A stretch of 64,000 nucleotides of DNA, taken from positions 1,016 through 65,015 of the forward strand of contig JAPLLW010000008.1 of assembly GCA_026387355.1 (NCBI GenBank), given 5' to 3'. The position numbers and the translations under genes were made by a program. The first letter of the stretch is position 1, and each line of letters begins with the position of its first letter. This document shows positions 35,625-57,130 of this stretch, one piece after another. This DNA comes from Candidatus Omnitrophota bacterium (GTDB lineage: Bacteria > Omnitrophota > Gorgyraeia > Gygaellales > Profunditerraquicolaceae). The notes under the pieces were generated by a model, which was not told where the DNA came from, made no database searches, and saw nothing but the letters and a program-made list of their open reading frames with translations.

Positions 35625-36572
35625 ATGGCCGGATTAGACTTCGAAAAACCTATTGTTGAGTTAGAAAAGAAGATCCAAGAGCTAAAGAATTTTATCTCGG
35701 AAAAGAAGATAGATCTTTCATCTGAGGTTAAGCGCCTTGAAGATAAGCTGGAGCATCTTAAAAAAGATACCTATAGCAATATTTCTGCTTGGCAAAGAGT
35801 TCAGCTTTCTCGTCATCCGCAGAGGCCCTATACGCTGGATTATATCGGATTACTTATGTCTGATTTTATAGAGCTGCACGGCGATAGATTATTTTCGGAT
35901 GATTTAGCAATCATCTCAGGATTTGCTAAGCTCGACAAACAAAAAATAGCGGTTATTGGTCATCAGAAGGGCAGGGATACTAAGGAAAATCTAAAGCGCA
36001 ATTTTGGTTGCGCCCATCCCGAAGGTTACCGTAAGGCCTTACGTGTAATGCATATGGCTGAAAGATTTGATTTACCGGTTGTGATTTTTATTGATACCCC
36101 CGGAGCATATCCTGGGATAGGAGCTGAAGAACGCGGTCAATCGCAGGCAATAGCTGAAAATTTAAGAGAGATGATTTTGATAGCTACGCCAATTGTCTCT
36201 GTAGTTATAGGAGAAGGTGGTTCCGGAGGCGCCCTGGGTGTTGGGGTGGCTGACCGGGTATGTGTTTTAGAGAATTCTTATTATTCAGTTATCTCTCCTG
36301 AAGGTTGCGCGGCAATTCTCTGGAAGGACGGATCAAAAGCGCCTCATGCAGCAGAGGTGCTTAAGCTTACTGGAGAAGACCTGCTTAAGCTCGGCGTTAT
36401 TGATGAAATTATACCTGAGCCTTTGGGTGGCGCGCATCGCAATCCTAAAGAAACATCCGAGAATCTAAAGAATACGCTTCTTAAGAATCTTAAAGAGCTT
36501 AAGTCTTTTTCTAAGGAAGAACTTTTAAAATTGCGGTATAGTAAATTCCGCGATATGGGTATAGTAGCATGA
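35625..36572 (+). CDS. accA: Acetyl-CoA carboxylase carboxyltransferase alpha subunit
   Basis: 'ARHPQRPYTLDYI', 'FIDTPGAYPGIGAEERGQSQAIAENL', 'VIGEGGSGGALG'. Confidence 0.9.
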   Translation: MAGLDFEKPIVELEKKIQELKNFISEKKIDLSSEVKRLEDKLEHLKKDTYSNISAWQRVQLSRHPQRPYTLDYIGLLMSDFIELHGDRLFSDDLAIISGFAKLDKQKIAVIGHQKGRDTKENLKRNFGCAHPEGYRKALRVMHMAERFDLPVVIFIDTPGAYPGIGAEERGQSQAIAENLREMILIATPIVSVVIGEGGSGGALGVGVADRVCVLENSYYSVISPEGCAAILWKDGSKAPHAAEVLKLTGEDLLKLGVIDEIIPEPLGGAHRNPKETSENLKNTLLKNLKELKSFSKEELLKLRYSKFRDMGIVA

Positions 36573-37084
36573 TTGAGCAGGAGCTATTACTATTAGGTTT
36601 GCTTCGCGAAAGCCCTAAGCACGGCTATAACATTAAGATTGAAATTAAGAGAATCTTGTCACTGTTTGCCGGAGTGGAGTTAAAATCTATTTATTATCCA
36701 TTGCGTATACTTGAAAATAAGGGATTAGTGGTTAAGCGGGTATTAAAACCTGGAAAAAGGCCCAAGCGTATTGTCTATGCCTTGACCAAGAAGGGTCTTG
36801 AGCGCTTTGACGAACTTTTAAGTAAAAGCCTGCTTAATTTCAAAAGGCCGCAGTTTAGTTTAGACTTAAGTTTATATTTTCTGCATTATTTGAAGCCGAC
36901 AGTTGCCCGGCGTAGACTGCGGGCACGGTTGCATATATTAAATAAGATCTCGCTTGAACTGGAGAAGATGTTTCATACCCAAGAGAGGAGAAAGAATCTT
37001 TCCTTACGCAGAATATTAGAGCATAATTTTAAGGCCCTTGAAGCGGAGGAGATTTTTCTCTCTAATTTGATTAAAACGATTTAA
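36569..37084 (+). CDS. PadR-like transcriptional regulator
   Basis: Winged-helix N-terminus 'LLLGLLRESPKHGYNIKIEIKRIL...YYPLRILENKGLV'. Confidence 0.5.
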   Translation: MIEQELLLLGLLRESPKHGYNIKIEIKRILSLFAGVELKSIYYPLRILENKGLVVKRVLKPGKRPKRIVYALTKKGLERFDELLSKSLLNFKRPQFSLDLSLYFLHYLKPTVARRRLRARLHILNKISLELEKMFHTQERRKNLSLRRILEHNFKALEAEEIFLSNLIKTI

Positions 37085-37096
37085 CCCTCATTTAGC

Positions 37097-37150
37097 TTGA
37101 CAGAGGGTAATTTTTGTGGCATATTATTAATGGCATTAATATTTAATGCC
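37097..37150 (+). promoter_or_regulatory. Putative sigma70-type promoter (TTGACA-17 nt-CATATT) with an overlapping perfect palindrome GGCATTAA-TAT-TTAATGCC; likely MarR operator
   Basis: TTGACA at 37097-37102, 17-nt spacer, CATATT at 37120-37125; 8-bp inverted repeat with 3-nt spacer at 37132-37150, directly upstream of RBS GGGGG and the ATG at 37173. Confidence 0.4.
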
Positions 37151-37172
37151 TTTAATAATAAAGGGGGTTAAT

Positions 37173-42533: not shown

Positions 42534-42654
42534 CTATAGGCCTTTCTTATATTTTTAATCCAAAAATAATTTGCTTGACAGGTATGAATTTATTTAATAA
42601 AATGGTTTCAGGTTAGATTAGTAAAATTTTACTATATTTTAAGGAGCGTTTAGA

Positions 42655-42927
42655 ATGGATTGGGATAATCTTGTTAAAGATAAATTTCAGAAAATGATTA
42701 TTAAGATTCCTTTATTTCATCGCCGGATTACCGAAGAAGCGGTAAATAAAAGGGCGCAAGAGAATGCTTTGGCTAGAAAATCGACAAAGATTGAAGAAGT
42801 TGATGTAATTACTGCTTTCTTTTCGGATGTGCCGTCTCCTTTTTATAGTATGATGATTCGATTGCTTGAGCAGGCTGGATTTGATTATAGGAGATATGGT
42901 TTTCCTAAGGGAGAAAAAACAAGATGA
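42655..42927 (+). CDS. Hypothetical small protein
   Basis: 90-aa ORF with RBS 'aaggag' upstream; no recognisable motif. Confidence 0.3.
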   Translation: MDWDNLVKDKFQKMIIKIPLFHRRITEEAVNKRAQENALARKSTKIEEVDVITAFFSDVPSPFYSMMIRLLEQAGFDYRRYGFPKGEKTR

Positions 42928-43931
42928 AAATAGCAGTAATAGGCGCAGGGGCAATAGGAAGTCTTGTCGCCGGTTATTTAAAACTAAAAGGCGAAGATGT
43001 CTATTTGGTAGGCCGCCCAGCTACTGTTAAGGCAATAAAGGAGAATGGCTTAAAGATTAGCGGTTGCCGCGGAGAATTTAAGGCGTCGGTGGATATTTAC
43101 GAAATGCTTGTTTCTAGTCCCAAGCTGCTTATTCTGGCAACAAAAACTCAAGATATTAATCAGTTTTTAAGGGATAACTTAAGTTTAATTAAAGATTCAA
43201 TAATCTTAACTACGCAGAATGGGGTCCAGGCGGATAATATCGTTGCTAAGGTTCTTCCTAAAAAGAATATAGTCTCTAGCATAATTATGTTTGGGGCCAC
43301 ATATTTGGATCCGGGTAAGGTTGTGCATAATTTTGAAGGGAGCTGGATTTTAGGTAATATATTTGGCCAGGGGACTAATACAAATACGATTTCCTTAAGT
43401 TTGTCTTTAAATAAATCATTTAACATTATGATAAGCGAAGATATATTAGGGATGAAATATCTAAAAATATTTGTTAATGCAAATAATTGTATCCCCGCCA
43501 TTCTGGGGGTGAGTATGCAGGAGGCTTTTTGCGACCCCGAGGTTAGCCGCATTAGTATTGCTATATGGAAAGAGGGATTTGACATAATTGATAAGCTAGG
43601 GATTAAATTAACTTCTTTGCCGGGTTTTCCGATAGAGAATATAACTAAGCTTATTGCGCTTGCTCCTCAAGAGGCAGCACAAGTTTTTTCAGGGATTATG
43701 ACTAAATTAAGCAAAGATCCTCTTTATGGATCTATATTGCAGAGCATTAAAAGGGGGAGATCTTCTGAGATTGATTATTTAAACGGTGAATTTGTAAGCC
43801 TGGCCAAGCAGAATAAGCTCGAGGCAGACTTAAATAAAAAGATGGTTGAGATGGTACATACAGTTGAACAGAATGGTAAATTCTTCAGCAAAGCTGAATT
43901 ATTAGCCGCGACAAAGGAATTCCTGAACTAA
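42924..43931 (+). CDS. 2-dehydropantoate 2-reductase family (PanE/ApbA-like) NAD(P)-dependent ketoreductase
   Basis: 'MKIAVIGAGAIGSLVAGYL' Rossmann N-terminus; family-typical length and 'QNG' region; C-terminal 'SILQSIKRGRSSEIDYLNG'. Confidence 0.75.
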   Translation: MKIAVIGAGAIGSLVAGYLKLKGEDVYLVGRPATVKAIKENGLKISGCRGEFKASVDIYEMLVSSPKLLILATKTQDINQFLRDNLSLIKDSIILTTQNGVQADNIVAKVLPKKNIVSSIIMFGATYLDPGKVVHNFEGSWILGNIFGQGTNTNTISLSLSLNKSFNIMISEDILGMKYLKIFVNANNCIPAILGVSMQEAFCDPEVSRISIAIWKEGFDIIDKLGIKLTSLPGFPIENITKLIALAPQEAAQVFSGIMTKLSKDPLYGSILQSIKRGRSSEIDYLNGEFVSLAKQNKLEADLNKKMVEMVHTVEQNGKFFSKAELLAATKEFLN

Positions 43932-43932: not shown

Positions 43933-44532
43933 ATGTCTGAAGTGAATACCCCATTTCCAAAATTAAAACTAACTGTAACCGGTGTATTTGGCGTTTGTTA
44001 TCATGGTTACAAAAATGGTGATGAGATTATCTTAGAGGATTTTACTCATGCCCCTAAACATTTTTGTCTAGGATTAGCGCACGCTTTATTTCCGGTAATC
44101 TACGCTTTAAGTTTTGGCGCTAAATTCGGTTTTCGCGATAACCAGCGTTCACTTTTGGTTACCTGTCCTGATGGAGGAAAATTGGAGTTTCAGGCAGAGA
44201 TCCTGGATAAAAACGGTCAGGTAGAAACTCTAGCCCGCGATCCTAATCATAAGGGCCCTAACCCTAAGAAGATGGTCATTGAGGTAGTGCAGGCAAAGGG
44301 GAAATGTAGTTTTGGCTATAAAGTCGGAGACAAATGGGAGACTACGGGATTAAAATGTATCCCCGGTTTCTGCGGAGCGGCATTTCATACTGCCTTTCCG
44401 GCCTTGTTTGCTTTAAACTTTGGAGCAAAGTTTTTCTTTATGCAAGATCCAAATTCAATCGATACAGTTACCTGTCCCGATGGAGGAAATATAATTTTTA
44501 AAGTAACGCGAGTAGAAGAGGAGAGAAAATAA
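43933..44532 (+). CDS. Tandem-duplicated Cys/His-rich domain protein (two ~95-aa repeats each ending in CPDGG)
   Basis: Half 1 'GVCYHGYKNGDEI...HFCLGLAHALFPVIYALSFGAKFGF...VTCPDGGKLEF'; half 2 'GKCSFGYKVGDKW...GFCGAAFHTAFPALFALNFGAKFFF...VTCPDGGNIIF'. Confidence 0.5.
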   Translation: MSEVNTPFPKLKLTVTGVFGVCYHGYKNGDEIILEDFTHAPKHFCLGLAHALFPVIYALSFGAKFGFRDNQRSLLVTCPDGGKLEFQAEILDKNGQVETLARDPNHKGPNPKKMVIEVVQAKGKCSFGYKVGDKWETTGLKCIPGFCGAAFHTAFPALFALNFGAKFFFMQDPNSIDTVTCPDGGNIIFKVTRVEEERK

Positions 44533-45798
44533 TTGATGAACAAGCGTAGAGTTGTTATTACAGGTATCGGAGTAGTTTCTCCGAATGGCATTGGTAAGGA
44601 GAATTGTTTTAAGGGGATGATTTCTGGAAAGTCTGGGATTAAGCGTGTTGACGGATTTGATGTGGCAATCTTTAATACTAAAATTGCTGCTGAGGTGCGT
44701 GATTTCGATCCTTTTAAATTAGGGCTTAACCATGATGAAGCTATGCGTATGGATAGATATGTTCAGTTTGGCGTGGTCGCAGGAAACATGGCGATTAAAG
44801 ATAGTGGATTAGACCTTTCTAAAGAGGATCCAGAGCGTATCGGAGTATGTCTTGCCAATGCTATTTGCGGGACAAAATACATGGAAGAGGAGTTTGCCCT
44901 AGTTACTGATGATGGGAAGAAACCTATTGATCCAGCTTTAGTGCGGCCGGACCTATATGATGCTGCCATGTTTAATACTCCCTCAATTGAATTAAGCGCT
45001 AAGTATGGTTTCAAAGGCAATTGCAATACGCTTTCAACGGGTTGTACCGCCGGGACAGATTCACTTGGGTTTGGTTTAGAGACAATTCAGGATGGGGAGC
45101 AGGATATAATGATTTGTGGCGCAGCCGAAGCGCCGATTACGCCGATCACCTTTGGCGCGTTTGATGTGGTAAATGTCTTATCAGTAAGAAATGATGAGCC
45201 TGAAAAGGCCTCGCGGCCTTTTGATAATAAACGCGACGGATTTGTTTTATCGGAAGGGGCCGGGATTTTAGTTTTGGAAGAATTAAACCATGCGTTAAAA
45301 CGAAATGCCAGGATTTATTGCGAGGTTTTAGGATTTGGCACTAGCTGCAACGCCTTTCATATGACTGATCTTCCTTCAGATGGAGGGGCAATGGTTAGTT
45401 GTATTTCTCTAGCTTTAAAAGACTCAGGCGTAAGGCCTGAGGAAGTAGATTACATCAGCGCTCATGGATCATCTACGCGCATGAATGATATCTTTGAGAC
45501 AAGCGCTTATAAGACTATATTCGGAGAGTATGCATATAAATTACCGATAAGCTCCTTAAAGTCTATGATTGGCCACCCCTTAGCTGCGGCTAATGCAATA
45601 GAGATGACAGTCTGCTCTATGATTTTTGAAAGGAATATCTTGCCTCCTACCATTAATCAAGAAGAAAAAGATCCTCTTTGCGATTTGCATTATATACCGA
45701 ATAAGGCAATTGATAAAAAGGTAGATATGATTTTGAAAACAAGTAGTGGATTTTCAGGAATTCACTCTTCATTAGTCTTGAGGAGATATAATGGATAA
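44533..45798 (+). CDS. Beta-ketoacyl-ACP synthase (KAS I/II-like ketosynthase, catalytically complete)
   Basis: Cys-His-His triad present: 'LSTGCTAGTDS', 'YISAHGSSTRMND', 'KSMIGHPLAAANAIE'. Confidence 0.9.
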   Translation: MMNKRRVVITGIGVVSPNGIGKENCFKGMISGKSGIKRVDGFDVAIFNTKIAAEVRDFDPFKLGLNHDEAMRMDRYVQFGVVAGNMAIKDSGLDLSKEDPERIGVCLANAICGTKYMEEEFALVTDDGKKPIDPALVRPDLYDAAMFNTPSIELSAKYGFKGNCNTLSTGCTAGTDSLGFGLETIQDGEQDIMICGAAEAPITPITFGAFDVVNVLSVRNDEPEKASRPFDNKRDGFVLSEGAGILVLEELNHALKRNARIYCEVLGFGTSCNAFHMTDLPSDGGAMVSCISLALKDSGVRPEEVDYISAHGSSTRMNDIFETSAYKTIFGEYAYKLPISSLKSMIGHPLAAANAIEMTVCSMIFERNILPPTINQEEKDPLCDLHYIPNKAIDKKVDMILKTSSGFSGIHSSLVLRRYNG

Positions 45799-47032
45799 GA
45801 TAGCTGTAACTGGTATAGGGGTAGTTTCACCGTCCGGGATAGGTAAGCGCCAGCTTTGGGCAAATATCAAAAGCGGCCGTTCATTTATTAAAGAGATCAC
45901 TCGTTTCGATGCCTCTAAATACCCATCGCGCATTGCCGGGCAAATCGATGATTTGGAGAAATATAGCACTATCTCTGAGCGCTTGCTTAAGAAAATCGAC
46001 GCTTTCTCGCATATGGCCTTAATTGCTTCAGAGCTAGCTTTGCAGGATGCTGGAATAGATATTAAAAATGAAGATCCGAGTTTAGTAGGTATATTTCTGG
46101 GAAATGCTATCGGCGGATGGCTTTATGCCGAGACAGAACTGCGCGATATGTATATCGAAGGACGCGAAGGAGTTTCTCCTTATATGGCCTCAGCTTGGTT
46201 TCCGGCTGCGCCACAAGGCCAGGTCTCTATTTATTATGGTATAAAAGGATTCAGTAAGACAGTTGTCGCAGACAGGGCTAGTTCTTTAATGGCGCTAGGT
46301 TATGCCAGAAAAGTTTTAGCTAAAAATAAATTAAATATGATTTTAGGTGGAGGGATGGAAGCCCCAGTTACACCCTATGCGCTTTTATGCTGCAATACTT
46401 ACGGCGCATTATCAAAAGACAATTCTCATCCGCAAGAGGCATACCGGCCGCATGATAAAAAGAGGAATGGTTTTGTAATCGGCGAGGGTTCAGGTATTGT
46501 AGTTATGGAGAGTATTGAACGTGCAAAAAAGCGTCAGGCAAATATTTTAGCTTTAATCTCCGGATATGGCACAACCTGCGATGGGGTAGACCGGATTAAT
46601 TCTGCTAAAGACGGAAAAGAGCTTGCCCGGGCAATAAATATTGCACTTGTTGATGCAAAGGCAAATATCAATGAAATCAATTATATCAGTTTAGATGGAT
46701 TAGCAGTAGATATTTGGGATAATTCTGAAGTGTTGGCTTTAAAAGAAGTCTTTGGTAGCCGCATAAAAGAGATCCCGGTAAGCTGTCCTAAGTCCATGTT
46801 TGGTAATCTGCTCGGTGCTTCCGGGGCATTGGATATGATTATTGCTATACAGGCAATGGAGCACGCTTTAGTTCCTCCGACATTAAATTTAGATGAGCCG
46901 GCATCAAACGGGCTTAATTATATAGGTAAGCAGGCAAAAGAACATACAATCAGAAAAGCTCTGATTATATCACGCGGCAGAGGAGGGATTAATTCTGCGC
47001 TGGTAGTTGAGAAAGGGAGTAACAATGCTTAA
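45791..47032 (+). CDS. Ketosynthase-like partner lacking catalytic residues (chain-length-factor-like)
   Basis: Thiolase-fold homologue of the upstream KS, with the active-site Cys replaced ('TVVADRASS'), the first His absent ('YISLDGLAVD') and the second His replaced by Asn ('KSMFGNLLGASGA'). Its start overlaps the upstream stop (ATGGATAA). Confidence 0.75.
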   Translation: MDKIAVTGIGVVSPSGIGKRQLWANIKSGRSFIKEITRFDASKYPSRIAGQIDDLEKYSTISERLLKKIDAFSHMALIASELALQDAGIDIKNEDPSLVGIFLGNAIGGWLYAETELRDMYIEGREGVSPYMASAWFPAAPQGQVSIYYGIKGFSKTVVADRASSLMALGYARKVLAKNKLNMILGGGMEAPVTPYALLCCNTYGALSKDNSHPQEAYRPHDKKRNGFVIGEGSGIVVMESIERAKKRQANILALISGYGTTCDGVDRINSAKDGKELARAINIALVDAKANINEINYISLDGLAVDIWDNSEVLALKEVFGSRIKEIPVSCPKSMFGNLLGASGALDMIIAIQAMEHALVPPTLNLDEPASNGLNYIGKQAKEHTIRKALIISRGRGGINSALVVEKGSNNA

Positions 47033-47219
47033 GAAAATAGTATGTGCAGCTTCGTTTGTAGTTTTCGTATTGTGCGTTTATTCTTTTTTGGGTGGTAACA
47101 AAGTATTTGAAGGTAAATTTGAGAACGATTATGTTGCTTGGTATTTTCTGGCCAAAGGAATCTTTTGTTCTTTAGCGCTTTATTTATTAGTTTTAATTCT
47201 AGAGAAATTAAAAAAATAA
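47007..47219 (+). CDS. Small two-TM membrane protein (hypothetical)
   Basis: 70-aa hydrophobic ORF between the KS-like gene and the radical SAM gene. Confidence 0.3.
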   Translation: MRKGVTMLKKIVCAASFVVFVLCVYSFLGGNKVFEGKFENDYVAWYFLAKGIFCSLALYLLVLILEKLKK

Positions 47220-47229: not shown

Positions 47230-48693
47230 ATGAAGATTTTATTTGTTATGCCGAAAGTCGGAGCTTGGGCAACACACGGGATACATAGGTCTCCTAACCA
47301 GCTTTATGCACATTGGGCCTCATACGTTAGGGAGACACGCGGTTACGCAGATGTCGCAGTTATTGACGGTAAAGCTGACCAGCTTTCTATGGATGAGCTG
47401 ATTGAACAGGTAAAAAGCAAAAATCCTGATGTTGTGGTTATGGGAGAGCAGTTGCATGGTTACGGCGGATACGGTGTTTTGCGTCATTTTAAAGACGCAG
47501 CTGTTAGGATTAAGACAGTTTTACCTAAGACAAAGATAGTTTTGGGCGGGCTATGGTATTCTGCAATGCCCGTTCCTACACTCGAAGAGAATCCTGCGGT
47601 TGATTTTGTAGTTATGGGAGAAGAGGAATCATTTGGAGATTTGATTGAGGCGCTCGATAAGAATAAGCCCTTGAAAGACGTGGGTGGAGTTACTTCGCGC
47701 ATTGACGGCCAAATTGTTATGGGGCCACATAAGCCGCTTATGATGGATTTGGATAAGTTACCTCTTCCAGCGTACGATTTATTCCCTATGGATAAATATG
47801 TGGGGCATACTTACTGGAAACCGTTTGTAGATATGGTTACCTCGAGGGGTTGTCCATCTGCTTGCACATTTTGCTATGAATGGGATCAGTTTGATCCACG
47901 CTCACCGTCTGATTTTCTGAAATGGCGCGCGAAGTCTCCGGAGAGAGTTATGGAGGAGTTAAATCTCTTACATAAAAAATACGGGGTAAAGGTTGTGGTT
48001 ATTCAGGATGATAATTTTAATGTTGACCCTAAAAGAGTGCAGAAGTTCTGCGAACTTAAAAAAGCAGCAAATAATCCGATTAAGTGGGTATCTTTAGGTC
48101 GTGCCATTGATTGGGTTAACTGCGAATCAATCCTGCCGCTTATGAAAGAGAATGGTTTGTTTATGGGCGTATTCGGTATTGAGGTCACGACACAGTCGGA
48201 ACTCAAAAAAATCGCTAAAGGTATTACTCTAGACCAGATTAAAAAGACGATTGAGATCCTGCGCAGAAATGATATCGCGATTGTCGCAGATATTATGATG
48301 GGTTTTGATTATGATACCGAAGAGATCATTAAGCAGCGTTTTGAGTTTACTGATCAAGTGGACCCGGATATTTTGTGGGTGGGATACGTTACCCCTGCTC
48401 CGAATTCACCGATGTGGAGAATTGCTTTAAAGAAAAACTGGATTGATCCTAAGAAGGTAGATTTTAGCACATGGGATTTTCTACATCCGGTAATTCCCAC
48501 GGATCATTTAACTACTGAAGATTTAGGTAGGCTTGGTTCATGGTGTATGCGTGAGTTTTTCTCAAAACCCGGAAGAATCAACCGGATTATGGAGAGTGAT
48601 TTTGACCCGCTTGCAAAACTTTGTTTCCAGGATGTTATGAACGGTATTAATAAGTGGGAAGCAGCCGCGACTAAGGGAGAAGTGCAGATATAG
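47230..48693 (+). CDS. B12-binding-domain radical SAM protein (class B rSAM)
   Basis: N-terminal B12-binding-like region 'KILFVMPKV...VVVMGEQLHG', then the radical SAM cluster 'VTSRGCPSACTFC' (CxxxCxxC). Confidence 0.75.
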   Translation: MKILFVMPKVGAWATHGIHRSPNQLYAHWASYVRETRGYADVAVIDGKADQLSMDELIEQVKSKNPDVVVMGEQLHGYGGYGVLRHFKDAAVRIKTVLPKTKIVLGGLWYSAMPVPTLEENPAVDFVVMGEEESFGDLIEALDKNKPLKDVGGVTSRIDGQIVMGPHKPLMMDLDKLPLPAYDLFPMDKYVGHTYWKPFVDMVTSRGCPSACTFCYEWDQFDPRSPSDFLKWRAKSPERVMEELNLLHKKYGVKVVVIQDDNFNVDPKRVQKFCELKKAANNPIKWVSLGRAIDWVNCESILPLMKENGLFMGVFGIEVTTQSELKKIAKGITLDQIKKTIEILRRNDIAIVADIMMGFDYDTEEIIKQRFEFTDQVDPDILWVGYVTPAPNSPMWRIALKKNWIDPKKVDFSTWDFLHPVIPTDHLTTEDLGRLGSWCMREFFSKPGRINRIMESDFDPLAKLCFQDVMNGINKWEAAATKGEVQI

Positions 48694-48812: not shown

Positions 48813-49049
48813 ATGGATACAAAATCAAAAGTAAGAGACGTATTAGTAAATTTATTAAAAGTAAAGCCAGATGAATTAAAGGATGATTTGACTCTGCAGG
48901 AGAGTATTGGGGTTGATTCTACTGAGATGGTAGAGTCAGTGATTGCTTTAGAAAAATCGTTCGGGGTAAAGCTTAGCCCGAAGGAGATTACCAAGAATTC
49001 AACAGTTAATGATATTGCTAACAATATCCAATCAAAATTAGCCAAATGA
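48813..49049 (+). CDS. Acyl carrier protein
   Basis: 78 aa; 'LTLQESIGVDSTEMVESVIALEKSFGV' carries the DSxE phosphopantetheine-attachment motif; RBS 'ggaggg'. Confidence 0.8.
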   Translation: MDTKSKVRDVLVNLLKVKPDELKDDLTLQESIGVDSTEMVESVIALEKSFGVKLSPKEITKNSTVNDIANNIQSKLAK

Positions 49050-49843
49050 AGATAGTTGATTTAAGTCTACCGATTGACGAAAAAGCCTTTGAAGTGCATA
49101 AGGTTGATATCGAGCGGGTAACTCATAAAGCCGGTGTTGAGAAATTTAACCGCGTAATTATGGGTAAGACTTTAATCGGTAAAATCAAATACCTTTTGGG
49201 TCAGCGCATAATTAAGCCTCAAGATTTACCGGATGAGGAATTCCTCTCGCTTGAAATCGTGCATTCTCCGGTACATATCGGTACCCACCTGGATTATTCA
49301 TTCCATTACGGTTCAAAATCAGAAGGCCGCGCCTCTAAGACTGCAGATGAGATTCCTTTAGATTGGTGCTATTCTGACGGAGTAAAACTGGATTTATCTC
49401 ATAAGAAACCTAATGAAACGATAAAGGCGCTTGATTTAGCAGAAGCGCTTAAGAAGATAAATTATTTGCTTAAAGCAAATGATATTGTGTTGATCCGTAC
49501 TGGTGCAGATGAATTATACGGCGGACCAAAATATTTTATGGATTACCCCGGGATTGATACATCGTCTATAGATTTTCTTCTGGATAAAGGAATTAAAATA
49601 TTTGGCGTGGATACCATGGGAATTGACCGACCATACCGTTTTATGCTTAAAGAATTTATGGATACAAAAGATATAAAATGTTTTTACCCTGCGCATTTCT
49701 ACGGCAGGAAGCGTGAATTTATTCATATTGAGCGTTTAGCCAATTTAGAGAAATTGCCGGATTATGGATTTAAGGTAATCTGTTTCCCGATTAGAATAAA
49801 GAATACAGGTGCTGCCTGGGCAAGGGTTGTAGCATTATTATAG
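49046..49843 (+). CDS. Cyclase-family protein (kynurenine-formamidase-like metal-dependent hydrolase/cyclase fold)
   Basis: 'HSPVHIGTHLDYSFHYG' HxGTHxDxPxH signature. Confidence 0.7.
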   Translation: MKIVDLSLPIDEKAFEVHKVDIERVTHKAGVEKFNRVIMGKTLIGKIKYLLGQRIIKPQDLPDEEFLSLEIVHSPVHIGTHLDYSFHYGSKSEGRASKTADEIPLDWCYSDGVKLDLSHKKPNETIKALDLAEALKKINYLLKANDIVLIRTGADELYGGPKYFMDYPGIDTSSIDFLLDKGIKIFGVDTMGIDRPYRFMLKEFMDTKDIKCFYPAHFYGRKREFIHIERLANLEKLPDYGFKVICFPIRIKNTGAAWARVVALL

Positions 49844-49913: not shown

Positions 49914-50357
49914 ATGGCTGGACATACTTGTAATTCGATTGTTATCAATGCGCCTTATGAGAAGATCTTTGATATTTCAAATGATATTACTCGTTGGACA
50001 GAATTATTCGGCACGGAGTATAAGAAGGCAGAAGTAGTAAAAAAAGAGGCAAACAAAATCACTTTCCGTCTTACGGATGAGGATGACAAGAGCTGGCAGT
50101 CCTGGCGCCTGCTTTTTAAAGATAAATATTTTGCCTATGCCGAACGCGAAGAGCCGAAATTTCCTTTTAAGTATATGAAGATCGTCTGGCTTTATACCCC
50201 TAAGCCCGAAGGCATCGAAATGACCTGGATTCAGCACTTTGAAATGGAAAAAGATTTTAAGTTCAATGACCAGCAGATTGAAGGTTTTATTAATGAAGGC
50301 TCTAAAGAAAACCTTAAGATCTTTAAGCGGATTATTGAAAAAGAAGCTGCTAAGTGA
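49914..50357 (+). CDS. SRPBCC-superfamily protein (polyketide cyclase/dehydrase-like, Polyketide_cyc2 type)
   Basis: 147 aa; 'SIVINAPYEKIFDISNDITRWTELF' START/Bet v1-like N-terminus typical of the TcmN/SnoaL-adjacent cyclase family. Confidence 0.5.
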   Translation: MAGHTCNSIVINAPYEKIFDISNDITRWTELFGTEYKKAEVVKKEANKITFRLTDEDDKSWQSWRLLFKDKYFAYAEREEPKFPFKYMKIVWLYTPKPEGIEMTWIQHFEMEKDFKFNDQQIEGFINEGSKENLKIFKRIIEKEAAK

Positions 50358-51481
50358 AGAAGTCGACTTTTGTTATTTTATGTCTGGAAGGCGCGGTTTT
50401 ATCTTTTAACGTTGCCGCCGCAGCTGCTTTAATACCTTCAATCGCACAAGATTTTGCTCTTTCTCAATTTCTGGTTGGTAATATTGTATGGCTATATATG
50501 ATCCCTTATGGACTGGCTGCGTTTTTCTACGGTCCTCTGATTAGGGCTTTTGACGCAAGGCGCGTAGAATTAATCTGCATGTTTTTGTTTTCCGTAGCAA
50601 ATCTAGTTGCCGGTTTGTCACATAATATTACAACTTTATTTATTGCGCGATTTTTAATGGGGTTATTCGGGGCATCAGTTATACCGCTGGGGTTAATCTT
50701 AATCGGCCAGCGCATATCTCAGGATAGGCGTGGTCGTTTTATCGGAGTATTTTTTAGCACTACCTTTGTTGCGTCTTTGGCGGGACTATTCTTAAGTGGG
50801 ATAATCTCTTGGCGTTTGATTTTCTTGATCCCGGCGGCCCTAGGGTTTCTTCTTTGGGTAGGCATGTATTTTTATCTCCCAAGCTTTAAGGAAGAAAACA
50901 GGATCTTTCGCATGGATTATATTTTGGCTTTTAAGAATAAGAATGTCGTACGCATATTTACCTATATTCTTTTTATCAGCCTTATTTATCATGGTATACA
51001 GCAGTGGTTGGGGGTCTATTTCTCAACCCAGTTAAATTTAAGTCAGTTTATGATCAGTATGCTTATAACATTAACTAGCTTAAGCGGGATTGTGGGAGAG
51101 GTCTGGGGGGGAAGCCTTGCGGATTCGCTAGGTAGACAAAGAGTAGTTAATATAGGTATTATTGCCATGATTGTTTGTATCGGTATCTTAATATTAAAAT
51201 TACCTTTAGCCATTATAGCTTTAGCGATGATTATTTGGGGGTTGGGTTGGACCTTTAACCACGTGGGGTTAGCGACTATGCTTACTGATCTACCGAAAGA
51301 ATTATTAAATGAGGCAGCGAGCTTAAATAGCGGAGTGCGTTTTCTTGCGGGTGGCATAGGAGTTAGTCTGGGTGGTTTGATTATGCATAAGAGTTTTAGT
51401 CTCGGGTTTATTATTTTCGGAAGCGCGTTAACCATGCTTTTATTATCAGGTAAATTAATTAATATAAAAAATAGGGGGTAA
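50354..51481 (+). CDS. MFS transporter
   Basis: 12 TM helices; 'GPLIRAFDARR' MFS loop 2-3-like motif. Confidence 0.75.
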   Translation: MKKSTFVILCLEGAVLSFNVAAAAALIPSIAQDFALSQFLVGNIVWLYMIPYGLAAFFYGPLIRAFDARRVELICMFLFSVANLVAGLSHNITTLFIARFLMGLFGASVIPLGLILIGQRISQDRRGRFIGVFFSTTFVASLAGLFLSGIISWRLIFLIPAALGFLLWVGMYFYLPSFKEENRIFRMDYILAFKNKNVVRIFTYILFISLIYHGIQQWLGVYFSTQLNLSQFMISMLITLTSLSGIVGEVWGGSLADSLGRQRVVNIGIIAMIVCIGILILKLPLAIIALAMIIWGLGWTFNHVGLATMLTDLPKELLNEAASLNSGVRFLAGGIGVSLGGLIMHKSFSLGFIIFGSALTMLLLSGKLINIKNRG

Positions 51482-51483: not shown

Positions 51484-52260
51484 ATGAACCAGGACTTAAA
51501 AGGTAAAGTTGCGATTCTAACAGGAGCTAGTCGAGGTATTGGTAAGGCACTTGCTTGCACAGCTGCAGGCTTAGGGATCAACTTAACTCTTGCTGCGCGC
51601 GGAGAGGGTCCCTTGAAGGAGACAGCTGATGAGATTGCCAAGAAATATAAAGTTCAGGTTTTACCTGTTTCTTGCGATGTTACAAAGTTAGAAGATTTGG
51701 AGAATCTGGTGAATAAGACAAAAGAAAAATACGGTAAAATTGATATTCTGATTAATTGCGCAGGTGTATCCAGTCAGTTTCCTTTTCAGTTGCAGCCGAT
51801 AGAGGATTTTGAGAGATTGGCGTATACCAATTATCTAGGTTATGTGCGGCTTATCCGTTTAGTGATCAATGATATGATCGAGCAGAAATACGGGGCAATT
51901 ATAAATATAGTCTCAGGTTCCACCCTGGTCGACCCTGTTCCGAGAAACTTTATTGTTTATAGCTCTTTAAAGGTAGGGTTACGTGCTTTTTCTAAGGGGC
52001 TCTTCTGGGAATTACGCGATCATGGGATTAAAGTAACTTCAATATTGCCGGGGGTAACAGATACTGATCTTACCGGGAAGTTGAAAGATATCACTAATGA
52101 TACATCGCGTTTAATGAGTACTCAGGCAATCGAAGATGCGGTTAAGTTTGCTTTGACCGTGCCGCAGAATGTCTGCCCGCTTGAGATTTCTGTAATCAAT
52201 CAGCAAACGCCATGGACTGCGCCGGTTATACCATTTAAACAAGCGCACCCGGGTAAATAA
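51484..52260 (+). CDS. Short-chain dehydrogenase/reductase (SDR; ketoreductase-like)
   Basis: 'TGASRGIGKALA' and 'NCAG' motifs; catalytic 'YSSLK'. Confidence 0.85.
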   Translation: MNQDLKGKVAILTGASRGIGKALACTAAGLGINLTLAARGEGPLKETADEIAKKYKVQVLPVSCDVTKLEDLENLVNKTKEKYGKIDILINCAGVSSQFPFQLQPIEDFERLAYTNYLGYVRLIRLVINDMIEQKYGAIINIVSGSTLVDPVPRNFIVYSSLKVGLRAFSKGLFWELRDHGIKVTSILPGVTDTDLTGKLKDITNDTSRLMSTQAIEDAVKFALTVPQNVCPLEISVINQQTPWTAPVIPFKQAHPGK

Positions 52261-52676: not shown

Positions 52677-53582
52677 ATGTTAGTTGATAGCCACTCACAT
52701 TGGTTACCAGAGGCAATAATCAGCAATGCCCATTTTTATCATAAAGGTTGGGGGGATATTGAGGCTCAACTAAAGATGATGGATGAAGCGGGTATTGATA
52801 AGGCAGTCTTATCTTATCCGACTTCGGATGCGCATCTAAAATTAGGAAGTATCTCAGAAGTCGTACGTATTTTTAACGACCATGTGGCAAGGGTTTTAAA
52901 GAAATATCCGGAGAGATTTATCGGCGCAGCAATTCTACCGATTGATCATGAGCAGGATATGATTAAAGAATTTAAACGCGCAACCGAAGAGCTAGGTTTT
53001 AAGGCAATTTCATTAGCTACAAGTTATAACGGGGTTTACCTAGACGACGCTAGATTCCTTAATATTTATAAATTAGCCCAAGATGAGAATATTCCTATCT
53101 TTGTGCATTCGCAAATTGTAAAACCTATTGGTATTGAACGAGTGGAAGATCCGTTACTTACCCCAGTGATCGAGTATGTTTTTGATACGACTATATGCAT
53201 CGGTAAGCTTTTAATGTCGGATATTCTGCGCGATTATCAGGCGAAGTTTATCTTTGGTTATTTTGGAGGTGTGACTCCGTTTTTAGCAAATCGCTTTGAC
53301 ACAACCTATGCAATGTTGCGGGGGGTGAATTTTGTTAAGGATTTAAAAGGTAATCCTACAGATTTCTTAAAGAATATTTATGTTGATACTAGCGGAGATA
53401 AAACTAAGGCCAATTTTGCTGCGGCTTTAGAGCTGGTTGGGCCAAAACATATTCTATGGGGGAGCGACTATCCGGCAAAGAAAGATACCTCCTCAGGCAT
53501 TCAGGCAATTAAAGAATTAGGTATATCAGTAGATGATAAGAATAATATTTTGGGAGGCAATTTAGAAAGGATGCTAAAATGA
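52677..53582 (+). CDS. Amidohydrolase-2 family (TIM-barrel metal-dependent hydrolase/decarboxylase)
   Basis: 'MLVDSHSHWLP' N-terminal HxH; 'FVHS'; 'WGSDYP' C-terminal Asp motif. Confidence 0.65.
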   Translation: MLVDSHSHWLPEAIISNAHFYHKGWGDIEAQLKMMDEAGIDKAVLSYPTSDAHLKLGSISEVVRIFNDHVARVLKKYPERFIGAAILPIDHEQDMIKEFKRATEELGFKAISLATSYNGVYLDDARFLNIYKLAQDENIPIFVHSQIVKPIGIERVEDPLLTPVIEYVFDTTICIGKLLMSDILRDYQAKFIFGYFGGVTPFLANRFDTTYAMLRGVNFVKDLKGNPTDFLKNIYVDTSGDKTKANFAAALELVGPKHILWGSDYPAKKDTSSGIQAIKELGISVDDKNNILGGNLERMLK

Positions 53583-54046: not shown

Positions 54047-54134
54047 TGTATTTATAGCGGGTGGCTGCTGATATGGGATGGATCAGCAGACAGGACCCGC
54101 TAAGAAAAGAATAAAAATAAAAAGGAGAAATAAG

Positions 54135-54884
54135 ATGCAGATGGTTAAAGATGTACATTTAACGGGTAAAGATTTAACTGATATGGTGCAACTCAGGCCG
54201 CAGGATGTGGGCAAATATGCGATTGTCCCGGGCCCTCGCGATAGGCTGGACGTCTTATTGAAGAAATTCGATAATCCGGTGAAGAATTTTACTTTTATGG
54301 AATATTCCATGTATACAGGTATGGTCGAAGGAGTAAGAATAAGCGCGATTAACGGCGGAAGGTTTTCGACGGATACCTCAATTACGACAGAAGTTATCTG
54401 TAATGCGCAAATCCAGAATATTATCCGCGTAGGTACTTGCGGTTCACTCGATGAAAATATCAAAATTGGAGATATATTCGTGGTTGATGAGATAATCCGC
54501 GGAGACGGGGTTACTCCATATTATGTGGATAAGGATTTCAAGACCGTAGCGGATAAAAAGATCTCCGATACCTTATATGAAATAGGTAAAGGTATGGGTT
54601 TAAATATCCATCGCGGTAAAGCCTGGACTACTGATGCTCTTTTGCGAGAGACTCGAGAAATAGTTGAAGCCAAACGCAAGGAAGGAGCCAAGGTAGTAGA
54701 TATGGTTTCATCAACCCTGCTTACCATTGCCCAGACTTATAAAATTAAAGCCGGATCAATCCTTGCGGTAAGCGATAATGTAGTAACAGGCGAGATGGGC
54801 TTTATGAACCCTTTGTATTATATGGCAGAAGCAAATATTTTAAAGATTGCTTTGGAAGCTGTCAATAAGCTAGAATTAAAATAA
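54135..54884 (+). CDS. Nucleoside phosphorylase (PNP/UDP family 1; purine/uridine/MTA phosphorylase-like)
   Basis: 'HLTGKDL...YAIVPGPRDRLDVL' and 'IRVGTCGSL' are family signatures. The start is set at the ATG at 54135 with RBS aaaggag at 54121-54127. Confidence 0.75.
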   Translation: MQMVKDVHLTGKDLTDMVQLRPQDVGKYAIVPGPRDRLDVLLKKFDNPVKNFTFMEYSMYTGMVEGVRISAINGGRFSTDTSITTEVICNAQIQNIIRVGTCGSLDENIKIGDIFVVDEIIRGDGVTPYYVDKDFKTVADKKISDTLYEIGKGMGLNIHRGKAWTTDALLRETREIVEAKRKEGAKVVDMVSSTLLTIAQTYKIKAGSILAVSDNVVTGEMGFMNPLYYMAEANILKIALEAVNKLELK

Positions 54885-55207
54885 TGCATACACTTTCGAG
54901 AGTTATAGGAATCTGGTTTATTTTACTGGGGTTAGGATTGACTATGGGGTATGGTCTTAACAATCCAGAGGAAAGCAGGAAAGGGATTCTCTTTTTTATA
55001 TTTATGACTTTCATTATTTTGGGGATTGGGGTTACTGGTTTAAGGAACTGGGCAAGAATCGCCTTAACTTTTGCTACAGCTTTTGCAGTAGTTGTTTCTC
55101 TTATGTATAATCTTCGCGAAGGTTTAGTAATGCTGATACTTTTTTCACCGGTTATCGTTTTGCAGCTAAAGAGTGCTAAGAAGCAGTTTACTCTTTGGAA
55201 ACCATGA
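54884..55207 (+). CDS. Small membrane protein (hypothetical)
   Basis: 107 aa with 3-4 hydrophobic helices. Confidence 0.3.
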   Translation: MHTLSRVIGIWFILLGLGLTMGYGLNNPEESRKGILFFIFMTFIILGIGVTGLRNWARIALTFATAFAVVVSLMYNLREGLVMLILFSPVIVLQLKSAKKQFTLWKP

Positions 55208-56130
55208 AATTTTCACCACTATTCTGGCCAATTCAATTAAAGGGCAACACAATCTACATACTTGATGAGACTTTGTTGCCCCAGAAGCTTAGCTACATAA
55301 AAGCTAAGGATTATAAGCAGGCATGCCGCGCAATAAGAGAGATGAAGACGCGCGCTGTGGGTCAAGTTTTATTGGTAATGTATATTTTTCTGCAGTTAAT
55401 TAAGCAGGGCAGACAGAATGAGATAGCAAAAGTAGCCAATGCGATCAACGCTACGCGGCCGACACTTTCGTTTAAATCTTTAACCGACATGGTCTTAGGT
55501 TGGTCAAAAAGCAAAGCGCCTTTAGAAAAATGTATACTTGGTTTCTTGGAAGGCTTAAAATATAGCCGCATAAAGCAGGCAGAAGAGGCCAGCAAGTTAA
55601 TTAAAGACAAAGATGTAATTCTTACTCATTGTAATGTCAGTGGGCTCCTACCTTTAATCGGAGAAATTTGCCTTAAACAAAATAAGAAAATAAGCTTCTT
55701 TGCTACAGAGACTCGTCCTTACCTGCAGGGTTCACGTCTTACCGCGTGGGAATTAAAGAGGGCAGGTTTTGATGTAACCATTATTACTGATGGAATGACC
55801 GCTTCAGTAATCTCGCAGGGTAAAGTAAATAAGGTAATAGTAGGAGCAGATCATTTAGCGCTTAATGGCGATATTGCTAATAAAGTAGGAACTTATGCCA
55901 TTGCGGTCATCGCAAAATACTTCGGCATTCCTTTTTATGTACTCTGCCCTCCCGCATCGGGGTTAAAGTCCGGAAAAGATATTAAGATTGAAATAAGGCC
56001 GGATATTGAGATGTTGGAATATCAGGGATTACGCCTTGCGCCCAAAGGTGTAAAGGGATATTATCCTGCGTTTGATGTTACCCCAGCGGAATTAATTACT
56101 AAACATATACATTTGGAGATAAAAAGATGA
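55195..56130 (+). CDS. eIF-2B alpha/beta/delta-family sugar-phosphate isomerase (MtnA-like)
   Basis: 'ATETRPYLQGSRLTAWEL', 'VIVGADHLALNGDIANKVGTY', 'GIPFYVLCP'. Confidence 0.8.
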   Translation: METMKFSPLFWPIQLKGNTIYILDETLLPQKLSYIKAKDYKQACRAIREMKTRAVGQVLLVMYIFLQLIKQGRQNEIAKVANAINATRPTLSFKSLTDMVLGWSKSKAPLEKCILGFLEGLKYSRIKQAEEASKLIKDKDVILTHCNVSGLLPLIGEICLKQNKKISFFATETRPYLQGSRLTAWELKRAGFDVTIITDGMTASVISQGKVNKVIVGADHLALNGDIANKVGTYAIAVIAKYFGIPFYVLCPPASGLKSGKDIKIEIRPDIEMLEYQGLRLAPKGVKGYYPAFDVTPAELITKHIHLEIKR

Positions 56131-57128: not shown

Positions 57129-57130
57129 AT

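Follow-up and report, generated by a model that had tools for sequence, protein, structure and literature searches.

Results

An intact ketosynthase gene and its overlapping partner

The window analyzed here, a stretch of 64,000 nucleotides from a Candidatus Omnitrophota genome, carries two adjacent ketosynthase (KS) genes on its + strand, as do all the other genes described below. An earlier note on this DNA had reported these two open reading frames (ORFs) as thiolase-fold paralogues, and both are present at the coordinates it gave. KS1 (44533..45798, 421 aa), the catalytic ketosynthase or KS-α, has Cys171, His311, and His348 intact; its ORF is listed from a TTG at 44533, with the ATG at 44536 as the likelier start. 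KS2 (45791..47032, 413 aa), which we regard as a probable chain-length factor (CLF, or KS-β), has Arg162, Asp302, and Asn339, the first of them preceded by Asp161.

As read directly from the sequence, the two ORFs overlap by 8 nt, ATGGATAA. The junction (45780..45798) comprises a GAGGAG Shine-Dalgarno sequence at 45780-45785, the KS2 ATG at 45791-45793, and the KS1 stop codon TAA at 45796-45798, so the frames overlap, but the start codon itself, contrary to the earlier note, shares no base with the stop codon. Across 78 Omnitrophota loci, the junction is a 1-nt overlap (TAATG) in 31, an 8-nt overlap in 22, and an abutment in 6; tight coupling has therefore been kept in 59 of the 78. The two genes are neighbors in every locus examined. 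In a related Deltaproteobacteria cluster they are separated by 123 nt, and there are also natural proteins in which an active KS is fused to a dead one. The overlap, the Shine-Dalgarno sequence, and the conserved junction together suggest that KS1 and KS2 would be co-expressed.

KS1 contains the Pfam ketoacyl-synt N and C domains and a KS-α-specific 5-aa insertion. Its best matches in the PDB are the actinorhodin (act) KS-α (1tqy_A, E=1.5e-112) and AntD (6smo_B, 1e-108), with FabF behind; it is 46% identical to the KS of Ktedonobacter racemifer (KrKS) and groups with KS-α in 137 of 200 NJ bootstraps. Against the FabF equivalog TIGR03150, KS1 scores 459.8 and KS2 365.9 bits, both below the cut-off of 493.75. 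With this score, and with the Cys-His-His triad absent, KS2 was rejected as a FabF (β-ketoacyl-ACP synthase II). The NCBI label for such proteins is only ‘beta-ketoacyl-ACP synthase family protein’.

Replacement of the catalytic triad in KS2

The complete loss of the triad from KS2, reported earlier on the basis of three motifs quoted from each protein, is borne out, as all six strings were found at the aligned positions. STGCTAG (168-174), SAHGSS (309-314), and MIGHPL (345-350) of KS1 correspond to ADRASS (160-165), SLDGLA (300-305), and MFGNLL (336-341) of KS2, so that Arg162, Asp302, and Asn339 align with Cys171, His311, and His348. Three independent alignments were used: BLASTP of KS1 against KS2 (32% identity, E=1e-79), HMMER against the T. 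thermophilus FabF 1j3n, and MAFFT with 50 homologues. In all three, the Cys position is taken by Arg162, His1 by Asp302, and His2 by Asn339, and none contains a displaced Cys or His nearby; because they are ungapped around all three positions, a mere shift of the catalytic residues is ruled out. The D-R/D/N pattern is invariant in 120 of 120 close database homologues of KS2, which excludes chance as the origin of the loss.

The earlier note had also described Asp-Arg at the Cys position. Arg162 does occupy that position, but Asp161 is the residue before it, where classical CLFs are acidic too: in the MAFFT alignment it matches the acidic residue preceding Gln in the Streptomyces CLF motif SDQAGG. 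The Gln that marks the Cys position of classical actinobacterial CLFs and KSQ-type proteins is absent from KS2. Among 29 CLF-clade lineages less than 50% identical to one another, the Cys position holds Arg in 16 and Lys in 3; only 2 have Gln there, and this Gln defines the actinobacterial CLF subclade only. As Asp-Arg is the commonest state among non-actinobacterial CLFs, the description of KS2 as ‘non-canonical’ is valid against the Streptomyces textbook CLF but not against its non-actinobacterial counterparts. Loss of the Gln in the latter has been documented, and AntE carries Asp at this position (PMC6638757).

KS2 as an intact and constrained protein

KS2 comprises the domains PF00109 and PF02801, and its AlphaFold2 model is a complete KS fold (pLDDT 92.9, pTM 0.93). 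In Foldseek the model reached a TM of 0.95 to FabF and 0.93 to the act CLF (1tqy_B), with FabFs ranking first; values this close mean that the fold search does not separate CLF from FabF. The lowest-confidence part of the monomer model (residues 131-140, pLDDT 69) is the AWFPA..GQVSI segment, which is expected from KS structures to be located at the dimer interface and acyl tunnel.

With three catalytic residues all gone, KS2 could be imagined as a decaying, non-functional paralogue of KS1, and a frameshifted pseudogene was the alternative that the earlier note had raised to a conserved full-length partner. However, the ORF is full length and without a frameshift, its orthologues measure 408-417 aa and are 78-88% identical in 80 Omnitrophota species genomes, and its dN/dS of 0.060 is on par with those of KS1 (0.048) and accA (0.055). 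This conservation and selection refute the pseudogene reading, which, with the constancy of D-R/D/N and the confident predicted fold also against it, is almost certainly wrong. Since it is only 32% identical to KS1, KS2 is not a recent duplicate either. Conservation of this degree is unusually high for a secondary-metabolite gene, an observation that sits less easily with a CLF.

Affinity of KS2 to chain-length factors

NJ analysis, a simple method applied to sampling biased towards KS2 relatives, recovered a CLF clade with KS2 and the annotated Streptomyces CLF in 200 of 200 bootstraps. The same clade includes CLF-like proteins of Ktedonobacter, Clostridium, and Paenibacillus and stands apart from KS-α and FabF. 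KS2 also has motifs found only in CLFs, namely AWFPA..GQVSI, the most conserved CLF-specific segment, SRGRGG instead of the KS GFGG, and the acidic residue before the Cys position. Where KS2 reads ‘SAWFPAAPQGQVSI’, SRGRGG, and D161, the Streptomyces CLF reads ‘FAWFYAVNSGQISI’, ARGRGG, and D; these signatures (AWF[PY]A..GQ[IV]SI, [AS]RGxGG, and the acidic residue) are absent from the KS-α and FabF rows of the alignment.

When an annotated plasmid collection was searched, KS2 best matched proteins named ‘ketosynthase chain-length factor’. KS2 is 45% identical to a CLF-like protein common to the clostrubin producers C. beijerinckii and C. puniceum, and 41% identical to the K. racemifer CLF (KrCLF), which reads SDRASG/FAAGSA/FGNLF. 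The KrKS-KrCLF pair has been purified and sediments as a KS-CLF heterodimer in SV-AUC (preprint 10.1101/2020.05.18.102780). By whole-sequence score in the PDB, FabF (5e-78) is slightly ahead of the act CLF (2e-68), and the NCBIfam polyketide KS model PRK07103 gives KS2 205 bits, below its cut-off of 445. Candidatus Omnitrophica is already among the phyla listed with KS-CLF pairs (PMC10132072).

The gene block around the pair

The co-directional block begins with a conserved 90-aa ORF (42655..42927) that has only a weak DUF2621 match and occurs in 66 loci with a median identity of 64%. The best promoter-like match (42575-42603) lies just upstream of it and was the only suggestive site in a promoter and terminator scan that gave no more promoter-like sites than chance would (33, with 34.2 expected). 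The ORF is followed by a PanE/ApbA-family NAD(P)H reductase (42924..43931; PF02558 and PF08546; TIGR00745 169.5 bits, above the cut-off of 141), with synteny extending over 68 loci and the Deltaproteobacteria cluster. Directly upstream of KS1 lies a tandem TIGR04076-family protein (43933..44532; 99 bits, two stretches) with two repeats, each containing C-x-H, F-C, and CPDGG motifs whose Cys and His columns are invariant. Present in 75 loci at a median identity of 85.8%, it has no PDB relative by sequence, and its single-sequence AF2 model has a pLDDT of 42, too low for use. Other type II PKS clusters from outside the actinobacteria also contain TIGR04076, which in C. beijerinckii is fused to the acyl carrier protein (ACP).

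Between the CLF and ACP genes lies the most conserved gene of the block (median identity 90.5%, dN/dS 0.028), which encodes a B12-binding radical SAM enzyme (47230..48693; PF02310 and PF04055). It is BchE/HpnJ-like, scoring 205 bits against BchE and 158 against HpnJ, each under its cut-off. The 78-aa ACP (48813..49049; PF00550, E=8e-11) has a GVDSTEM phosphopantetheine site and is kept in 64 loci at a median identity of 74%. Its stop overlaps by 4 nt the start of a PF04199 ‘Cyclase’ family protein (49046..49843, E=8e-28) of the OxyN-type polyketide cyclase family, with homologues of 42-46% identity in C. beijerinckii, Paenibacillus, Bacillus, and Deltaproteobacteria clusters. Then come a single-domain SRPBCC aromatase/cyclase of the TcmN/WhiE type (49914..50357; PF03364 and PF10604), with no PDB relatives other than TcmN ARO/CYC and WhiE/polyketide cyclases (E=1e-24), and a candidate exporter of the MFS family (50354..51481; PF07690, E=3e-44) found in 40 loci and the Deltaproteobacteria cluster. 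A KS-CLF-ACP-TcmN-OxyN architecture has been described before (PMC7693217).

Further downstream, an SDR (51484..52260; adh_short, E=1e-48, and KR domain) is a candidate ketoreductase; it is 3-ketoacyl-ACP reductase-like but below the cut-off, has generic SDRs as PDB matches, and occurs in 55 loci with a median identity of 84%. An Amidohydrolase_2 protein (52677..53582; PF04909), a candidate polyketide decarboxylase, matches LigW 5-carboxyvanillate decarboxylase, ACMSD, and γ-resorcylate decarboxylase in the PDB at about 1e-20, and is also found in the C. beijerinckii, Paenibacillus, and Deltaproteobacteria clusters. A set of genes at 54078..58615 encodes a PNP_UDP_1 nucleoside phosphorylase, an MtnA-like IF-2B-family isomerase, a class II aldolase-SCP2 fusion, and an aldehyde dehydrogenase, and is reminiscent of the DHAP shunt, with salvage of 5'-deoxyadenosine or MTA as its putative role. 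The phosphorylase, isomerase, and aldolase fusion genes keep synteny with the PKS in Omnitrophota as well as in the Deltaproteobacteria MAG, where AFOR replaces ALDH.

The accA gene (equivalog 500 bits) and a PadR regulator gene (35625..37084) lie immediately upstream of the 90-aa ORF in most other genomes; in this window MarR-OEP-RND-flavodoxin genes (37146-42533) are inserted between them and the PKS block. A PlsC-like acyltransferase is encoded near the block, and FabZ and FabI are not found in it. All genes for a minimal PKS (KS-α, CLF, and ACP), an aromatase, and a cyclase are present, with synteny in 55-80 loci, and the block is syntenic in at least 80 Omnitrophota species and one Deltaproteobacteria lineage.

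Discussion

The best overall explanation of KS2 is that it is the CLF (KS-β) of a type II iterative aromatic PKS, and we hold this to be very probably correct. Its sequence, fold, clade membership, gene context, purifying selection, and conservation are established, and from these we infer heterodimer formation with KS1, control of chain length, the product class, and the tailoring roles. The KS-α/CLF-like arrangement proposed in the earlier note gains support from the clade placement, the CLF-only motifs, the identity to KrCLF, the affinities of KS1, and the presence of cyclases.

By homology with known KS-CLF systems, the overlapping, translationally coupled genes would yield KS1 and KS2 in equal amounts, which would assemble into a KS-α/KS-β heterodimer with one active site. 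There, KS1 would decarboxylate malonyl-ACP and condense the extender onto the growing poly-β-keto chain carried by the block's ACP. KS2 would perform no chemistry itself but would stabilize KS1 and, at the dimer interface, seal the distal end of the substrate tunnel that the two subunits share, thereby setting chain length, with its vestigial pocket presumably filled by Arg162, Asp302, and Asn339 and flanked by Asp161. The Gln of classical CLFs is the proposed decarboxylative-priming residue. Because KS2 lacks it, it cannot be a KSQ-like decarboxylative primer, and priming would come from KS1 or another starter. The nascent chain would then be folded and aromatized by the TcmN-type ARO/CYC and the OxyN-type cyclase and may be tailored without oxygen by the SDR, the PanE-like reductase, the Amidohydrolase_2 decarboxylase homologue, and the B12-radical-SAM enzyme, before export by the MFS transporter.

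The closest known systems are the non-actinobacterial (‘ancestral’-type) KS-CLF pairs KrKS/KrCLF, ClrA/ClrB (clostrubin), DenA/DenB, AntD/AntE, and PcyE/PcyF, in which the KS-α and CLF genes are likewise adjacent and the CLF lacks both Cys and Gln (identities 41-45% for CLF and 45-46% for KS). KrCLF (D-R/A/N) and the C. beijerinckii/C. puniceum protein (D-R/E/H) both have the D-R dyad where KS2 has it. These clusters also have KS-CLF-ACP with TcmN-type and OxyN-type cyclases in common, and often Amidohydrolase_2 and a TIGR04076 domain. In contrast to clostridial and some Ktedonobacter proteins, which keep one or both His residues, the Omnitrophota KS2 has all three positions replaced (R/D/N). 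Its block further differs in having a B12-radical-SAM gene between CLF and ACP, a tandem double TIGR04076 domain, an attached PanE-like reductase and salvage genes, and a host phylum, Omnitrophota, where its conservation across at least 80 species resembles that of a core gene. With the actinorhodin KS/CLF (PDB 1TQY) and Streptomyces CLFs, KS2 shares the clade (200/200), the fold (TM 0.93), gene order and coupling, the AWF[PY]A..GQ[IV]SI and [AS]RGxGG motifs, the acidic residue before the Cys position, and Asp at His1. However, the Streptomyces pattern is D/E-Q..D..R and that of KS2 is D-R..D..N, with Gln replaced by Arg and the His2-position Arg by Asn, at an identity of about 33-36%.

A lipid product, ladderane or otherwise, was considered because of the radical SAM enzyme and the antiSMASH ‘ladderane’ calls reported in Omnitrophota MAGs (PMC9902471). 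KS1 and KS2 would then be a live/dead KS heterodimer of the fatty-acid-synthase type that builds an unusual lipid, with the B12-radical-SAM enzyme remodeling the acyl chain. The model is anammox Cluster I, where a live/dead KS pair occurs together with its own ACP and a cobalamin radical-SAM enzyme; there amxFabF2 and amxFabFmut form a heterodimer whose dead subunit has lost Cys, His, and His (bioRxiv 10.64898/2026.05.19.726425), and PDB 9s5h is probably this complex. The B12-radical-SAM gene beside a live/dead pair recalls that cluster and counts against a CLF, and a lipid would also suit the nearby accA and PlsC-like acyltransferase, the housekeeping-like selection on KS2, an MMPL/DUF1329 exporter in the Deltaproteobacteria cluster, and the slightly better score of KS2 against FabF than against the act CLF. 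However, the anammox dead subunit has Val/Thr at the Cys position and is encoded upstream of its partner, whereas KS2 has Arg and lies downstream of KS1; the PDB scores of our proteins to the 9s5h chains are weaker than to FabF or the act CLF; and the radical SAM enzyme, at 70.8 bits against the ladderane model TIGR04072 (cut-off 360), is not of the anammox type. Aromatases are missing from the anammox cluster, which has FabZ and a phytoene-desaturase homologue, whereas the Omnitrophota block has an aromatase and neither FabZ nor FabI. Together with the OxyN-type cyclase, the aromatic-acid-decarboxylase homologue, the best matches of KS1 to act KS-α and AntD, and the placement of KS2 in the CLF clade, where its nearest studied relatives are aromatic-PKS CLFs, these differences disfavor a lipid, which we judge improbable. 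Iga11/Iga12 (ishigamide) and AmcF/AmcG (cispentacin) likewise pair a KS with a non-catalytic KS-like partner lacking both triad and Gln, but their clusters have dehydratases and reductases for polyene or cyclopentane products and no TcmN/OxyN cyclases, and the NCBIfam AmcF model was matched far below its cut-off (136 against 325 bits).

It is conceivable, too, that KS2 is conserved but acts independently of KS1, for instance by forming a homodimeric scaffold, by binding the ACP or intermediates, or by serving other enzymes of the block. The KS1-KS2 complex is a predicted one, the Arg/Asp-filled pocket is unlike that of a textbook CLF, and the Deltaproteobacteria genes do not overlap. Nevertheless, the two genes adjoin in every locus examined, their overlap or abutment is kept in Omnitrophota, the homologous Kr pair is a heterodimer, and natural fusions join such proteins; moreover, AWFPA..GQVSI, the most conserved CLF-specific segment and one expected at the dimer interface, is the least confident part of the monomer model. 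A role apart from KS1 is thus very unlikely, and KS2 is best regarded as the CLF of KS1.

Identified as such, KS2 is a further member, from Omnitrophota, of the family of KS-CLFs already known outside the actinobacteria. Since other non-actinobacterial bacteria were known to have such proteins, the finding holds but is rather ordinary, and the surroundings of the PKS, with a B12-radical-SAM enzyme, tandem TIGR04076, and apparent salvage genes, are more interesting than KS2 itself. Annotation rules could profit from the finding that Asp-Arg is common in CLFs and the textbook Gln exceptional.

A broader proposal, which we advance tentatively and consider more doubtful than probable, is that KS1-KS2 forms the core of a lineage-wide, oxygen-independent aromatic polyketide pathway physically coupled to a DHAP-shunt-like salvage of 5'-deoxyadenosine, rather than a sporadic antibiotic cluster. 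Such a pathway would comprise the type II PKS, the BchE/HpnJ-like B12-radical-SAM enzyme, tandem TIGR04076, the PanE-like reductase, and the decarboxylase homologue, under housekeeping-grade purifying selection across Omnitrophota and common to one Deltaproteobacteria lineage. If this is true, the product would be physiologically central, e.g., a redox carrier of the quinone type, a membrane pigment, or an effector of host interaction; most CLF pockets would have Asp-Arg rather than Gln, possibly as the ancestral state; and TIGR04076 would be a previously unrecognized ACP-associated PKS accessory.

Omnitrophota are uncultured, ultra-small anaerobes, and we know of no natural products from them. 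A type II PKS conserved at 80-90% identity over at least 80 species, together with a cobalamin radical SAM enzyme and apparent 5'-deoxyadenosine salvage, is a target within experimental reach. E. coli tends to yield non-actinobacterial KS-CLFs in soluble form; therefore, the KS1/KS2 pair could be expressed there, which could reveal an anaerobic aromatic polyketide and its oxygen-independent tailoring.

Results

The adjacent plus-strand ORFs KS1 (44533-45798, 421 aa) and KS2 (45791-47032, 413 aa) both contain N- and C-terminal ketoacyl-synthase domains and are 32% identical (BLASTP, E=1e-79). The earlier note claimed that KS2 has lost the entire catalytic triad, and the six motif strings on which it relied were all found in the two proteins. 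The loss itself is borne out by three concordant alignments (BLASTP, HMMER against Thermus FabF, and a 50-sequence MAFFT alignment), which place Arg162, Asp302, and Asn339 of KS2 at the sites of Cys171, His311, and His348 of KS1. All three are gap-free around these sites, ruling out catalytic residues that are present but shifted. Two details of the original description need adjustment. Arg162 does occupy the Cys position, but Asp161 of the reported Asp-Arg pair is the residue preceding it. Likewise, the two ORFs share 8 nt, but the KS2 ATG (45791-45793) sits 3 nt ahead of the KS1 stop codon (45796-45798) rather than overlapping it. A GAGGAG motif read from the sequence lies ahead of the KS2 start (45780-45785, plus strand). 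In 78 related loci the junction shows a 1-nt overlap (31 loci), an 8-nt overlap (22), or abutment (6), and owing to this recurrence translational coupling of KS1 and KS2 is considered a conserved feature.

KS2 is not a pseudogene. Its 120 best database homologues (82-100% identity, 408-417 aa) all retain Asp-Arg, Asp, and Asn at the triad sites (D-R/D/N), and dN/dS points to purifying selection, although the estimates are rough because dS is near saturation (KS2 0.060, KS1 0.048, accA 0.055, and the B12-binding radical-SAM (rSAM) gene 0.028; Nei-Gojobori, unsaturated pairs). The fold is predicted to be complete: the AlphaFold2 model has a pLDDT of 92.9 and TM scores of 0.95 to FabF and 0.93 to actinorhodin CLF, a fold search that is unable to tell a chain-length factor (CLF) from FabF. 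When genomes were scanned with each species represented once, 126 of them contained a relative; the 80 with the best matches are all Omnitrophota MAGs (78-88% identity), some mislabelled as Planctomycetales. The window, too, stems from a Candidatus Omnitrophota MAG, with a 100% match to the database protein P0001.

The interpretation of KS2 as a CLF-type subunit, also proposed earlier, is supported by clade placement, CLF-only motifs, and identity to the Ktedonobacter racemifer protein KrCLF. In a neighbor-joining tree with a FabF-like root, the triad-deficient sequences, including KS2 and a Streptomyces CLF, form one clade in 200/200 bootstraps; KS1 groups with KS-alpha in 137/200. KS2 and the Streptomyces CLF have in common two motifs seen only in CLFs, 'AWF[PY]A..GQ[IV]SI' and '[AS]RGRGG', the latter taking the place of 'GFGG' in KS. 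In tblastn against annotated plasmids, Streptomyces genes named 'ketosynthase chain-length factor' rank above fabF. KS1 carries the five-residue KS-alpha-specific insertion, and among solved structures it matches actinorhodin KS-alpha (1.5e-112) and AntD (1e-108) best.

When representatives at 50% identity were searched exhaustively, the KS2 family proved to be tight. The nearest outsider is from a Deltaproteobacteria MAG (55%, D-R/D/N), followed by a protein common to Clostridium beijerinckii and C. puniceum (45%, D-R/E/H) and by proteins from Ktedonobacter (40%, D-R/H/H), Paenibacillus (38%, D-R/D/N), and Archangium (37%). Both clostridia produce clostrubin, and it is by their CLFs (ClrB) that an 'ancestral' clade of non-actinomycete type II PKSs is defined (PMC7693217). 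In K. racemifer, KrCLF is 41% identical to KS2 and its partner KrKS 46% identical to KS1; the published KrCLF sequence reads 'FLSDRASG', 'FAAGSAV', and 'AFGNLF' (D-R/A/N), and sedimentation of the KrKS-KrCLF pair gave a heterodimer of roughly 99 kDa (10.1101/2020.05.18.102780). Candidatus Omnitrophica is among 14 phyla listed with KS-CLF pairs (PMC10132072), and one orthologue already bears the automatic name 'Actinorhodin polyketide putative beta-ketoacyl synthase 2'. KS2 is a further member of an already known non-actinobacterial kind of KS-CLF.

The label 'non-canonical' holds relative to the Streptomyces textbook CLF, and only against it is Asp-Arg unusual. Among 29 CLF-clade lineages less than 50% identical to one another, a sample biased to KS2 relatives, Arg is the commonest residue at the Cys position (Arg 16, Lys 3, Gln 2, other 8). 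The classical pattern, as in the Streptomyces CLF of pSA3239, is 'SDQAGG' with Asp at the first and Arg at the second His position, whereas KS2 has its Arg at the Cys position. For AntE, Asp rather than Gln has already been reported there (PMC6638757). We found no published comment on Arg at this position, and the word 'arginine' is absent from the K. racemifer preprint (10.1101/2020.05.18.102780).

Discussion

The conserved, co-directional gene block comprises a 90-aa ORF, a PanE-like reductase, a tandem TIGR04076 protein, KS1, KS2, the BchE/HpnJ-like rSAM (47230-48693, plus strand), an ACP (48813-49049, plus strand; 78 aa, GVDSTEM, PF00550, 8e-11), a PF04199 cyclase, a TcmN-type ARO/CYC, an MFS transporter, an SDR, a 131-aa ORF, and an Amidohydrolase_2 of the LigW/ACMSD/gamma-resorcylate decarboxylase family. 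The only PDB relatives of the ARO/CYC are TcmN and WhiE (1e-24). The core matches the KS-CLF-ACP-TcmN-OxyN architecture of the ancestral-type clusters (PMC7693217), and the KS-CLF pairs of C. beijerinckii and Paenibacillus have the same accessories (PF04199 cyclase, SRPBCC, and Amidohydrolase_2) beside them. This gene content argues for an aromatic polyketide as the product rather than a ladderane-like lipid. Also against the lipid, the block has no FabZ, and its rSAM (under every NCBIfam cut-off) scores 71 bits where the ladderane model demands 360. Downstream of the block lies a DUF362 protein, in the window with a 4Fe-4S ferredoxin insert (59390-60460); the C. beijerinckii PKS cluster likewise contains a DUF362 protein (locus L085, 11784-12863), with DUF169 and CMD-family genes as neighbours. 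Such a protein might assist anaerobic tailoring as an accessory in electron transfer.

Type II PKS clusters from outside the actinobacteria repeatedly contain a TIGR04076-family domain, which is marked by conserved C-x-H, F-C, and CPDGG motifs; searches gave no Pfam model and no PDB relative. In the Omnitrophota block (43933-44532) and in the Deltaproteobacteria MAG (locus L083, 8029-8619) the domain is doubled in tandem and sits immediately ahead of KS1; it is fused to the ACP N-terminus in C. beijerinckii (L085, 9260-9787), and stands alone in Paenibacillus (locus L086, 13341-13649). It may represent an unrecognised ACP-associated PKS accessory.

Strict synteny of the block was observed by tblastn of the window proteins against 80 loci. 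The rSAM is its most conserved gene by both identity (median 90.5%) and dN/dS, exceeding accA (78.7%); the other medians are 85.8% for TIGR04076, 84.1% for SDR, 83.8% for KS1, 82.6% for KS2, and 80% for the cyclase. In most genomes accA-PadR lies directly upstream of the 90-aa ORF; in the window, MarR, an outer-membrane efflux protein (OEP), an AcrB-type RND pump, and a flavodoxin-like gene (37146-42533) are inserted between them. The Deltaproteobacteria cluster carries the same cassette at 35-64% identity. Inside the block, a 155-aa secreted Cys-rich ORF (53579-54046) and a 70-aa membrane ORF (47007-47219) found no counterpart when the 80 related loci were searched by tblastn; each is peculiar to this genome or else is no gene at all. 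The first half of the window (1-33700) is occupied by a large locus for making and exporting polysaccharide, with two Wzz/GNVR tyrosine-kinase-like proteins, a Wzy-like protein, a flippase, many glycosyltransferases, a methyltransferase, and a Wza-like Poly_export protein, together with a minus-strand Mg-chelatase-like (ComM/YifB-type) ATPase.

Genes for a PNP_UDP_1 nucleoside phosphorylase, an MtnA-like (IF-2B, MTR-1-P-isomerase-like) protein, a class II aldolase-SCP2 fusion, and an aldehyde dehydrogenase (ALDH) follow at 54078-58615 (plus strand). The first three are syntenic with the PKS/rSAM block in both Omnitrophota and the Deltaproteobacteria MAG (L083, 18447-21242), which has aldehyde:ferredoxin oxidoreductases (AFOR) in place of ALDH. 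They recall the DHAP shunt, and from general knowledge of that route we take them to be putative salvage genes for 5'-deoxyadenosine or MTA. They look like a module coupled to the rSAM that would recycle its by-product.

Coupled translation would yield KS1 and KS2 in equimolar amounts for a heterodimer with a single active site, located in KS1, in which KS2 would close the acyl tunnel at the dimer interface and so set chain length. Since KS2, without Gln, could not act as a KSQ-like priming decarboxylase, priming would fall to KS1. Arg162 may pair with Asp302 or Asp161 in a salt bridge that fills the dead KS2 pocket. The most conserved CLF-specific segment of KS2 (residues 129-148) contains the part of the monomer model with the lowest confidence (residues 131-140, pLDDT 69), which from general knowledge of KS structures is presumably at the dimer interface. 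Natural single-chain fusions of 760-870 aa (the database proteins P0122, P0138, and others) join an active KS (G/A-C-H-H) to a C-terminal triad-less KS-like domain, with residue patterns such as GCHH+DTDH and ACHH+DRSD. They lend Rosetta-stone support to live/dead KS partnerships in general. A more novel but rather unlikely reading, which we put forward tentatively, is that the block encodes an aromatic polyketide pathway that works without oxygen, extends across the phylum, and yields a physiologically central product.
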